Assembly: GCF_003334765.1 (NCBI RefSeq)
Contig: NZ_QOWT01000021.1
DNA from: Escherichia coli
GTDB lineage: Bacteria > Pseudomonadota > Gammaproteobacteria > Enterobacterales > Enterobacteriaceae
Strand: one strand, 5' to 3'
Length of the DNA stretch: 64,000 nucleotides
The notes beneath the pieces were generated by a model. The model ran no database searches, had not been told where the DNA came from, and worked only from the letters and a program-made list of their open reading frames with translations. The position numbers and the translations under genes were made by a program. Below are positions 16,667 through 19,911 of the stretch, piece after piece. Every line of letters begins with the position of its first letter. Within the stretch, counting starts at the first letter, position 1.

Positions 16667-17239
16667 ATGAAACTCGTGCACATGGCCAGTGGTTTAGCGG
16701 TTGCGATTGCGTTGGCGGCTTGCGCAGATAAAAGCGCGGATATTCAGACGCCAGCACCGGCTGCAAATACGTCTATTTCAGCAACACAACAACCAGCTAT
16801 CCAGCAACCGAATGTCTCCGGTACCGTCTGGATCCGTCAGAAAGTCGCACTGCCGCCTGATGCTGTGCTGACCGTGACACTTTCTGACGCGTCGTTAGCC
16901 GATGCACCGTCAAAAGTGCTGGCGCAGAAAGCGGTGCGTACTGAAGGTAAACAGTCACCATTCAGCTTTGTTCTGCCATTTAACCCGGCAGATGTTCAGC
17001 CGAACGCGCGTATTCTGTTGAGTGCGGCGATTACCGTGAATGACAAACAGGTATTTATCACCGATACCGTTCAGCCGGTGATCAACCAGGGCGGAACTAA
17101 AGCCGACCTGACATTGGTGCCGGTACAGCAAACCGCCGTGCCGGTTCAGGCCAGCGGTGGCGCAACGACTACCGTACCTTCGACTTCACCAACTCAGGTG
17201 AATCCGTCTTCGGCAGTTCCAGCTCCTACGCAATATTAA
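16667..17239 (+). CDS. ybaY: Predicted outer-membrane lipoprotein YbaY (190 aa)
   Basis: Lipobox LAAC in the signal peptide, followed by a Pro/Ala/Thr-rich low-complexity region. Confidence 0.9.
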   Translation: MKLVHMASGLAVAIALAACADKSADIQTPAPAANTSISATQQPAIQQPNVSGTVWIRQKVALPPDAVLTVTLSDASLADAPSKVLAQKAVRTEGKQSPFSFVLPFNPADVQPNARILLSAAITVNDKQVFITDTVQPVINQGGTKADLTLVPVQQTAVPVQASGGATTTVPSTSPTQVNPSSAVPAPTQY

Positions 17240-17247
17240 GCGACGTT

Positions 17248-17271
17248 AACCCTCTCCGCCCGGAGAGGGTT
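17248..17271. repeat. GC-rich perfect palindrome AACCCTCTCCG-CC-CGGAGAGGGTT (possible bidirectional terminator / boxC-like element)
   Basis: Read directly between the convergent ybaY and atl 3' ends; overlaps the atl stop codon. Confidence 0.6.
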
Positions 17272-17659
17272 AGTAGTTCCAGCGATAACGCTGCAAGTCG
17301 ATTTGCCCGCTTCCCGATACCATCACACCTTCTGCCAGTAATGCCTGTCGCTGACGCTGTAAATCCGGTCCGGTTAGCGAAATTGTGCCGTGGCGATTAA
17401 CCACCCGGTGCCAGGGTAAGGTGCTGCCTTCAGGGAGACGCTTTAACACACCGCCCACCTGGCGCGCGGCGCGGGGCGATCCCGCCAGTTTCGCCACATC
17501 ACCGTAAGTGGTGACATAGCCTTCGGGAATAGCGGCGACGATTTGCCAGACGCGTTGGGGAAATGAATCTTCTTTTTCCATCTTTTCTTCCTGAGGTAAT
17601 TTTTCAGCATAATCTGGAAAAACGCCCGAGTGAAGTCGCATTGCGCAAGAAACCAGCAT
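17270..17659 (-). CDS. atl: Alkyltransferase-like DNA-binding protein Atl (129 aa)
   Basis: Start set at ATG 17657-17659 (MLVSCAMRLHSGVF); MGMT-like HTH fold; the active-site cysteine of true alkyltransferases is replaced (PWHRVV). Confidence 0.9.
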   Translation of the reverse strand: MLVSCAMRLHSGVFPDYAEKLPQEEKMEKEDSFPQRVWQIVAAIPEGYVTTYGDVAKLAGSPRAARQVGGVLKRLPEGSTLPWHRVVNRHGTISLTGPDLQRQRQALLAEGVMVSGSGQIDLQRYRWNY

Positions 17660-17735
17660 CTGGCACGCGATGGGTTGCAATTAGCCGGGGCAGCAGTGAT
17701 AATGCGCCTGCGCGTTGGTTCTCAACGCTCTCAAT

Positions 17736-17849
17736 GGGGGCTCTGTTGGTTCTCCCGCAACGCTACTCTGTTTACCAGGTCAGGTCCGGAAGGAAGCAGC
17801 CAAGGCAGATGACGCGTGTGCCGGGATGTAGCTGGCAGGGCCCCCACCC
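17736..17849 (+). ncRNA. ffs: 4.5S RNA, the signal recognition particle RNA (114 nt)
   Basis: Sequence GGGGGCTCTGTTGGTTCTCCCGCAACGC...GGCAGGGCCCCCACCC recognised; conserved domain IV GGAA tetraloop region; lies in the atl-ybaA gap. Confidence 0.95.
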
Positions 17850-17959
17850 ATTTCTGCCTCCCACCGTTTCGTCAAAAAATCCCAACATGGCTAAACTTTA
17901 ACCACAACTGACGTCGCAAGAATTGTCTGGCTGCGCAGTACGCTTCGGAGGTATGTCTG

Positions 17960-18313
17960 ATGAAGTATGTTGATGGTTTTGTGGTTGCCGTTCCTGCCGA
18001 TAAAAAGGATGCCTATCGGGAAATGGCCGCTAAGGCTGCGCCATTGTTTAAAGAGTTTGGCGCGCTTCGTATTGTCGAATGCTGGGCCAGCGATGTACCG
18101 GATGGCAAAGTGACCGATTTTCGTATGGCGGTGAAAGCGGAAGAGAATGAAGAGGTTGTCTTTAGCTGGATTGAATACCCTTCAAAAGAGGTCCGCGACG
18201 CTGCTAATCAAAAGATGATGTCGGACCCACGGATGAAAGAGTTCGGCGAGTCCATGCCGTTTGACGGCAAGCGAATGATCTATGGCGGATTCGAGTCAAT
18301 CATCGACGAATAG
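17960..18313 (+). CDS. ybaA: DUF1428 family protein YbaA (117 aa)
   Basis: ORF with plausible RBS; sequence matches YbaA. Confidence 0.88.
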   Translation: MKYVDGFVVAVPADKKDAYREMAAKAAPLFKEFGALRIVECWASDVPDGKVTDFRMAVKAEENEEVVFSWIEYPSKEVRDAANQKMMSDPRMKEFGESMPFDGKRMIYGGFESIIDE

Positions 18314-18354
18314 GTAGCGTGACGGGCTGTGCGGCGTGCCGTCAGCCCAAAAAT

Positions 18355-19911
18355 TCACAAATGTTGCTCGGCCCAGCGTAAGAAATCTTCTTTCGGTAAT
18401 GCCTTGCTGTAGAGCCAGCCCTGACCGTAGTGCACGCCATGCTGGCGTAACCACTCTTCTTGTTTACTGGTTTCGATTCCCTCCGCTACCATTTTCAGTT
18501 TCAGTGTTTTTGCCATTTCGATGATATGCGGCGTGACATTTTTATATTCCAGCGCATCAACGAAAGATTTATCGATCTTCAGAATGTCGACATCCAGATC
18601 CTGTAAATAACTTAAACTTGAATACCCCGTACCAAAATCATCAAGATAAATTTCATGGCCCGCCTCCCGGTAGCGAGAAATTATCGGGGCGCTGGTTTTC
18701 GGATCGGCAAACTCGCGTTCAGTGAGTTCAAGCGCGATCTGTCTGGGATTAACCTGATAGTGATTGATCATGTCACGCAGCAATTGCGGGATTTTTTCCG
18801 AGGTGAGCACGGGGGATTCAAGATTGATCGAAATATGCTGCTGTGGATGCTGACGCAGCCAGTCGCCCATATCTTCAAAGACGCTTCTTATAATCAGTAG
18901 CGTCAATGGCTCAGAAAGGCCCGTTTGCTGTGCCAGCGGAATAAAACTATCTGGTGACAACCAACTACCGTCTGTCTGCGGCCAGCGCGCCAGTGCCTCA
19001 GCACCGACAATTTTGCCATTGGCTAAGGAGACAATCGGCTGATAGTGCACGCAAATATCACGATTTTCGATAGCATCCTGCAGCCGATGATGCGGTGACT
19101 GAATACGGCGCAAAATACGCAGCACAAACATCGCTGCCAGCAGGCCAATCACCAACCCGAGCGGTAACCAAATAAAGACTTGCCGATGCCAGCCTTTCTG
19201 CAACATTTTCGTTGAAGCCCATGTGATGATCGAAATATTCATCTCCGGTAAGGGCAGGATATCGTAAATGATTCCATTATTTTCGATATGCTCACCGGGT
19301 GTTTTTTGTAGCCTGGTAATAATTCCCTGAGCAATTTCATCGCTGCTGGTTATGACAACGTTATGGGCATTGCCAATAATGGCGGCATCAATTTGCCATG
19401 AGCTATAGGGAATGACATCAATAAAGGAAGCGGGGTCGATCATGACGACATAATGTGCCGTTCCCATGGCGACCATGTAACGGATAATGCCTAAATCGTT
19501 ATGCGATGTTAACCAGACACGATAACCATCTTTCGAAATTTTACCTGGCTCGGGGAAGGTATCGGGCGGACTTTCATGCTCCAGAGACGAACACTGGGGA
19601 ACGTTGTTATCGATATAAGCCACTTCCTGAATATAGCGATAACTGTAAGATACCCGACGCATTTCCATGAGATGGGCTTCGCTACAGGCAGCGCCTTGCC
19701 ATCTTTCCAGCTCCTGCAGCGCATCTTTCCCTTGTGTCGCCACCTTATTGGCTCGAATAGCGACGCGGGAGGAATAGGTATCCAGCTCTTCAATAAACGA
19801 TGTTTCTACCTGCTGATGGGCCAGCCAGATGCTTAAGCCGACAGGCAGCAATACTGAAAGAATCAGTACTCCCGAAATAAGGCCGACCAGATGTCGTGTT
19901 CTCACCAGCAT
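18355..19911 (-). CDS. pdeB: c-di-GMP phosphodiesterase: CSS periplasmic domain plus EAL domain (about 516-518 aa)
   Basis: Two TM segments, periplasmic Cys-containing domain, C-terminal EAL domain (EALARW...DDFGTGYSS). Start may be ATG 19909-19911 or the in-frame GTG 6 nt downstream. Confidence 0.9.
   Translation of the reverse strand: MLVRTRHLVGLISGVLILSVLLPVGLSIWLAHQQVETSFIEELDTYSSRVAIRANKVATQGKDALQELERWQGAACSEAHLMEMRRVSYSYRYIQEVAYIDNNVPQCSSLEHESPPDTFPEPGKISKDGYRVWLTSHNDLGIIRYMVAMGTAHYVVMIDPASFIDVIPYSSWQIDAAIIGNAHNVVITSSDEIAQGIITRLQKTPGEHIENNGIIYDILPLPEMNISIITWASTKMLQKGWHRQVFIWLPLGLVIGLLAAMFVLRILRRIQSPHHRLQDAIENRDICVHYQPIVSLANGKIVGAEALARWPQTDGSWLSPDSFIPLAQQTGLSEPLTLLIIRSVFEDMGDWLRQHPQQHISINLESPVLTSEKIPQLLRDMINHYQVNPRQIALELTEREFADPKTSAPIISRYREAGHEIYLDDFGTGYSSLSYLQDLDVDILKIDKSFVDALEYKNVTPHIIEMAKTLKLKMVAEGIETSKQEEWLRQHGVHYGQGWLYSKALPKEDFLRWAEQHL

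Follow-up and report, generated by a model that had tools for sequence, protein, structure and literature searches.

The interval 17736-17849 on the (+) strand of the window, the stretch of 64,000 nucleotides analysed here, is, with a probability that we put at about 99%, ffs, the single-copy Escherichia coli gene for 4.5S RNA, the RNA subunit of the bacterial signal recognition particle (SRP). The earlier note had placed a 114-nt SRP RNA at these coordinates, and they prove exact in the light of the match to the RF00169 family, the hairpin fold and the identity with the gene of strain K-12. Three rival readings, namely a protein-coding gene, a hairpin acting only in cis and a duplicate copy, are all rejected and jointly hold a probability of ~1%. 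The finding itself is already known and belongs to the textbook, the gene being E. coli K-12 ffs itself; ffs RNA is among the best-characterised of bacterial RNAs, and nothing new is learnt biologically from locating its gene. The use of the result lies in annotation. ORF tracks miss an essential non-coding RNA gene at this place, and a naive caller puts a spurious protein of 112 aa there. The features discussed are collected in Table 1.

Table 1 Features at and around ffs. Positions are those of the window unless a locus (L001, L123 or L124) is named.
Feature	Position	Strand	Basis
atl (alkyltransferase-like, MGMT family), upstream divergent neighbour	17270-17581; alternative starts 17659, 17680	-	ORF list, TIGR00589, PGAP
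sigma-70-like ffs promoter	17675-17703	+	-35 TTGCAA at 17675-17680, 17-nt spacer, -10 GATAAT at 17698-17703
pre-4.5S 5' leader (~22-26 nt)	17710-17735	+	removed by RNase P according to the literature; predicted hairpin 17712-17728
ffs, mature 114-nt 4.5S RNA	17736-17849	+	sequence, K-12 identity, hairpin, 3'-CCC terminus
RF00169 match, equal to the RefSeq/PGAP 'ffs' feature	17744-17840	+	cmscan; PGAP SRP_RNA at L001 1585-1681
asymmetric-loop bases A39 C40 C41 A42	17774-17777	+	A39 invariant, neighbouring columns at least 90% conserved (alignment A1, outside the search pattern)
domain IV (helix 8) core GTCAGGTCCGGAAGGAAGCAGC with GGAA tetraloop and symmetric-loop bases	17779-17800	+	search pattern; alignment A1
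distal site GUGCC (nt 83-87)	17818-17822	+	conservation in alignment A1
unoccupied attB core TGGCAGGGCCCCCACCCATTTCTG, last 17 nt of ffs and 7 nt beyond	17833-17856	+	direct repeat flanking islands elsewhere
ybaA (DUF1428), downstream neighbour	17960-18313	+	ORF list, RefSeq annotation
islands between ffs and ybaA	L123 38879-49130; L124 15977-24501		flanking direct repeats
internal attP-like site (P arm, core, P' arm, ~263 bp)	L123 47642-47904; L124 17203-17461	inverted	

Identity of the RNA gene

Read directly from the DNA, the 114 nt at 17736-17849 (+) run GGGGGCTCTG...GGCCCCCACCC (also GGGGGCTCTGTTGG...GGCAGGGCCCCCACCC). Base for base, this is the sequence of the 4.5S RNA of K-12. The 3'-CCC end agrees with the description of the RNA in PMC5499578. 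The whole 64-kb window was scanned against Rfam 15 at the gathering threshold, and the search with the covariance model of the bacterial small SRP RNA (RF00169, Bacteria_small_SRP), which the earlier note had named as its check, was clearly positive: the match at 17744-17840 (+) scores 68.1 bits, the gathering score being 40, with an E value of 5.5e-13 for the 64-kb window, and cmscan aligns it to the full model (positions 1-97 of 97). Such a match is far beyond chance. A permissive Rfam rescan of 17560-18000 returned nothing beyond RF00169, weaker matches to further SRP-clan families having been dropped in favour of the small type. The RefSeq/PGAP ffs feature is shorter than the mature RNA because the bounds of the Rfam model were copied; it has 97 nt where the mature RNA has 114 nt, so that the first 8 and the last 9 nt of the RNA are left out, and with them most of the att core discussed below.

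Other RNA elements were seen in the window at a distance from ffs. These are the DnaX programmed -1 ribosomal frameshifting element (RF00382; 34644-34708, +; 96.8 bits), which is expected inside dnaX, the sroB small RNA (RF00368; 48492-48575, +; 82.1 bits) and three matches to naRNA4 (RF02564; 42735-42812, 49873-49950 and 49974-50051), the two adjacent ones of which score on both strands, as is typical of clusters of REP/BIME palindromic repeats.

Fold and conservation across bacteria

On its own, the 114-nt RNA folds into one long hairpin with a minimum free energy (MFE) of -57 kcal/mol, which corresponds to z = -3.15 when compared with dinucleotide-preserving shuffles. The centroid structure, like that of the MFE, is a single hairpin made of helices 5 and 8, and a GGAA tetraloop caps it at 17788-17791 (nt 53-56). 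One genome per species was scanned with a degenerate domain IV core, GTCAGGNCCGGAAGGNAGCAGC, which yielded at least 120 loci from many phyla, and 103-nt segments of 114 of these SRP RNA loci, from diverse bacteria, were aligned together with that of E. coli, 115 sequences in all, using MAFFT, which is blind to structure (alignment A1). The fixed bases of the core at 17779-17800 are invariant in A1, but they are the search pattern itself and so do not count as independent evidence; the two free (N) positions of the pattern covary, taking the forms UA, CG, AU and GC, and are paired in 113 of the 115 sequences. RNAalifold applied to A1 recovers helix 8 only (7 pairs), three of the pairs, among them that of the two N positions, each occurring as four Watson-Crick types.

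The longer structure was assessed by projecting the E. coli MFE hairpin on A1. Standard pairs then form in 70.3% of cells; sliding the 3' partners by 1-3 columns lowers this share to 34-49%. Covariation is scored at 0.361, where the controls give 0.115-0.191, and 685 cells have both bases changed, as compared with 332 after shuffling. None of 500 column shuffles attains the value of the real structure on any of these three measures. The projected structure was taken from one of the sequences of A1, which favours it somewhat, yet the slid and shuffled controls are still well separated from it. In the outer helices only 55-76% of cells pair in A1, as is to be expected because the alignment is structure-blind and includes large-type SRP RNAs. 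Compensatory base changes across species support the whole hairpin.

Conservation outside the search pattern falls on bases with a known part in SRP. A39-A42 (17774-17777) are contacts of the Ffh M domain in published structures, and A47-G49 (17782-17784), within the core, are the symmetric-loop bases of domain IV that the same domain binds. Both G83 (17818) and G85 (17820) reach at least 90% conservation among the 115 sequences of A1, again outside the pattern; they lie in the distal site at 17818-17822, which published work credits with activating the Ffh-FtsY GTPases.

Neighbouring genes and the overlapping open reading frame

The flanking genes are atl and ybaA, as the earlier note had named them, the former of the MGMT family with a PWHRV motif and the latter of the DUF1428 family. 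The upstream ORF matches TIGR00589 (MGMT superfamily) with 53 bits, and its translation has PWHRV where the active site of MGMT has PCHRV; this exchange is the alkyltransferase-like signature, and the name atl is therefore apt. The start of atl is ambiguous, the longest ORF (17270-17680, TTG, 136 aa) being longer than the RefSeq/PGAP gene, which starts with ATG at 17581 and encodes 103 aa. The classic K-12 annotation of atl, 129 aa long, gives a 300-bp gap (17660-17959), which begins at the boundary used in the earlier note. The note's gap of 279 bp between atl and ybaA is right if atl is the longest ORF, and is not right with the PGAP gene (17270-17581), for which the gap is 378 bp. In its longer versions atl would extend into the promoter region of ffs and over the minor 5' ends that have been reported for pre-4.5S RNA at about -127 and -153.

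That the gap contains no ORF, as had also been claimed, holds for annotated genes and does not hold mechanically. The mechanical ORF list has a 112-aa ORF at 17563-17901 (+), with an ATG start, which covers all of ffs and, in antisense, part of atl, and several further ORFs of 31-60 aa lie in the gap. The 112-aa ORF has no match in NCBIfam (E<=0.01) or Pfam (E<=10) and is unannotated in every E. coli record inspected. With neither a family match nor an annotation it was rejected as coding and is regarded as spurious, and it is likely to be a false positive for naive ORF callers. The warning that an ORF-only annotation would miss an essential gene here gains further weight from this ORF, which covers ffs with a spurious protein.

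One could nonetheless hold that the 112-aa protein is the real gene and the hairpin incidental, given that the ORF exists mechanically and opens with ATG. We consider this extremely improbable. Beyond the missing family match and annotation, the 5' part of the ORF runs antisense within atl, and an island inserted at 17856 swaps the C-terminus of the ORF in ~1% of strains whilst the RNA is kept exactly; the conservation seen across phyla, moreover, takes the form of base-pair covariation and is not codon-like.

Promoter, leader and transcript ends

The sole promoter-like site within 17500-18100, TTGCAA-17-GATAAT, matches the sigma-70 consensus at 9/12 positions and stands at the distance from ffs that its published transcript calls for. 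The start predicted from it, G17710, lies 7 nt past the -10 element and 26 nt ahead of the mature G17736, and coincides with the main 5' end of pre-4.5S RNA at -26 in the literature; RNA-seq places these ends 'primarily at -26', and a minority of them near -127 and -153 (PMC5499578). Pre-4.5S RNA is a substrate of RNase P, and lengths of its leader have been given (PMC5499578, PMC7049720).

A consensus scan downstream of 17849 revealed no canonical intrinsic terminator. The sole terminator-like match, at 17727-17741, straddles the junction of leader and mature RNA and is no better than shuffles, and the fold of 17712-17900 has only a weak downstream hairpin that lacks a U-run. Because no convincing intrinsic terminator was found, the formation of the 3' end is a matter of inference: the terminal stem and the ACCCAUUUCU that follows it may contribute, together with exonucleolytic trimming. 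Insertions of the islands described below keep the sequence just to 7 nt past the mature end of ffs, which fits such a 3' end formation. For the identical K-12 sequence, a stable 4.5S RNA, its binding to Ffh and its requirement for growth are documented (PMC5499578, PMC7049720), and the literature cited in PMC5499578 describes 4.5S RNA as essential, in agreement with the status that the earlier note had given to the gene.

These data also bear on the suggestion that the hairpin is a cis-acting element only, whether the terminator of a neighbour or a REP-like repeat, and that there is no RNA gene at all. A long, GC-rich, intergenic hairpin could be taken for such an element, the more so as REP-derived hairpins (naRNA4) occur elsewhere in the window. 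The ffs hairpin, on the other hand, is preceded at a fitting distance by a promoter of its own (PMC5499578), is single-copy, matches the SRP model over its full length with no match to REP or naRNA4, and carries an Ffh-binding core that is invariant across phyla. The neighbours are transcribed away from the hairpin or start after it, and it therefore terminates nothing. We judge a purely cis-acting role to be vanishingly improbable.

Genomic context and copy number

The 301-bp gap that holds the gene is 100% identical to that of E. coli K-12 MG1655 and of many other strains, and the 1.2 kb around ffs (17200-18400) has zero mismatches to MG1655. Among 5426 complete E. coli genomes the gap is matched in 5425, the median being one place per genome; the remaining genome has no match. 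Every E. coli record among those listed annotates the gap as 'ffs: signal recognition particle sRNA small type'. The order tesB-ybaY-MGMT-family gene (atl)-ffs-ybaA-pdeB of K-12 is identical in the window. In plasmid records, two matching places were found in the E. coli collection and 12 PLSDB records match the ffs gap; several of the matching E. coli PLSDB 'plasmid' records are of megabase size and are probably mislabelled chromosomes. ARAGORN found no tRNA or tmRNA gene in the window. The notion of a non-functional extra copy or pseudogene, with the working ffs elsewhere in the genome, has no point in its favour and can be set aside as having a negligible probability, for there is a median of one matching place per E. 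coli genome, the maximum of two places reflects matches split by an island (5482 places in 5425 genomes, with 62 island carriers), and the sequence is that of K-12 ffs, a characterised gene, with the native order tesB-ybaY-atl-ffs-ybaA-pdeB around it. It came into consideration only because the window is a fragment of a genome.

A possible attachment site at the 3' end of ffs

We tentatively suggest, at a confidence well short of even, that 17833-17856 may be the empty attachment site of undescribed, ffs-targeting tyrosine-integrase islands with defence-like cargo, an unusual layout of three att sites and an invertible cargo segment. The window has no insertion at 17833-17856 and is in this respect K-12-like, so that the evidence for occupation comes from other genomes. 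In 64 genomes the match to the gap covers less than 80% of the query, with a break at ~17856 in the instance examined. Strain S1-SRB-02-B has a site-specific integrase gene directly 3' of ffs, and an island of 10,228 bp parts ffs from ybaA. The 10,228-bp island of NZ_CP145618.1 has a perfect 24-bp direct repeat, TGGCAGGGCCCCCACCCATTTCTG, at both flanks, and the 8,503-bp island of NZ_CM129847.1 (strain TB06053; L124 in Table 1) has a direct repeat of 22 bp at its flanks. The repeat consists of the 3' end of ffs and the next 7 nt, and integration therefore regenerates an intact ffs. The integrase segment was found in 62 of the 5426 complete E. coli genomes (~1%); the median number of places with att arms is three per genome.

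Besides attL and attR, the island has the core a third time, in inverted orientation and just past the integrase gene. This copy is accompanied by both arms, which gives a complete attP-like site of 123 + 24 + 116 = 263 bp. The internal site being inverted, the integrase gene therefore lies between inverted repeats of 140 bp and the cargo between inverted repeats of 147 bp. Within each island genome the inverted arms are 99-100% identical, and the island of TB06053, which is ~7% divergent, has the same three-site layout with arms that are 100% identical. Between the two islands compared, the integrase segment is collinear whilst the cargo, from the internal site to attR, is reverse-complemented; the cargo therefore occurs in both orientations. 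Flipping could be brought about either by the integrase acting on the inverted cores or by homologous recombination across the inverted repeats.

The island encodes a tyrosine integrase (phrog_1) and a serine DNA invertase (phrog_125). Its AAA ATPase resembles the defence proteins NsnB and AriA (PADLOC, 9.8e-56), and its DUF2188 protein matches the candidate defence family PDC-S16; a further gene is annotated as a type III restriction subunit. As regards a phage origin, blastn of the integrase/att region gave no match in 50,697 phage records. The integrase gene has the same orientation as the strongly expressed ffs and lies directly downstream of it, and one may speculate that it might be transcribed by read-through from ffs.

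Insertion at ffs has precedents in other elements. Type I-F3b CRISPR-associated transposons use the gene for attachment (PMC11406308), and so does the Enterococcus phage phiEf11, whose authors, in the latest paper on this use of ffs, state that they found no other prophage inserted in it (PMC12540744). The main text of a survey of defence-island hotspots in E. coli makes no mention of ffs, 4.5S, ybaA or atl (PMC10121019). PMC5422975 was considered as a source on ffs and genomic islands and rejected, the 'FFs' of that paper being fitness factors. For the field of mobile elements and defence islands, an island at the 3' end of ffs that is invertible, has three att sites and occurs in ~1% of genomes is of modest interest.

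Proposed mechanism of 4.5S RNA action

The gene in the window can be read as working in a series of linked steps. RNase P processing, the transcript ends, essentiality and the Ffh/FtsY mechanism are here drawn from the literature or from established knowledge. Transcription of ffs would proceed from its own sigma-70 promoter, with a start ~26 nt upstream of the mature RNA. RNase P would then take off the 5' leader and the 3' end would be trimmed to ...ACCC, leaving a mature RNA of 114 nt that is expected to adopt one long hairpin. Its apical domain IV, with the symmetric and asymmetric loops and the GGAA tetraloop, would bind the M domain of Ffh and help to recruit FtsY. The GGAA tetraloop speeds the docking of the receptor FtsY, after which the complex of the Ffh and FtsY NG domains moves to the distal site of the RNA. 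[quoted passage not shown] The scaffold role of 4.5S RNA is summarised in PMC5499578.

Comparison with known systems

The closest system is E. coli K-12 ffs, to which the gene in the window is identical in sequence (in the gene and over 1.2 kb), in its neighbours, in the position of its promoter and in its full-length match to the model, with no difference but the length of the annotation. A wider comparison is with the large bacterial SRP RNA, such as the scRNA of Bacillus subtilis, and with the eukaryotic and archaeal 7SL/7S RNAs of the SRP clan (CL00003). Common to these and to 4.5S RNA are helix 5 and the domain IV core, the latter with a GGAA-type tetraloop and with symmetric and asymmetric loops, and in A1 the E. 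coli core is aligned with sequences of the Bacillus type. An Alu domain is typical of the large bacterial SRP RNA and of 7SL/7S RNA. Whereas large SRP RNAs and 7SL carry this extra domain, the E. coli 4.5S RNA is a bare hairpin; the mature 114-nt RNA has no Alu domain, forms one hairpin without extra helices, and within the clan matches the small-type family best.

As a target for insertion, ffs can be set beside the tRNA and tmRNA genes. It differs from them in that the fold of 4.5S RNA is not tRNA-like and in that ffs has rarely been reported as a target of integrases. Like them, it specifies a hairpin-like RNA that is a substrate of RNase P (PMC5499578), and, as in many tRNA and tmRNA genes, its 3' end would serve as the attB of a tyrosine integrase, with the island restoring the 3' end of the gene.
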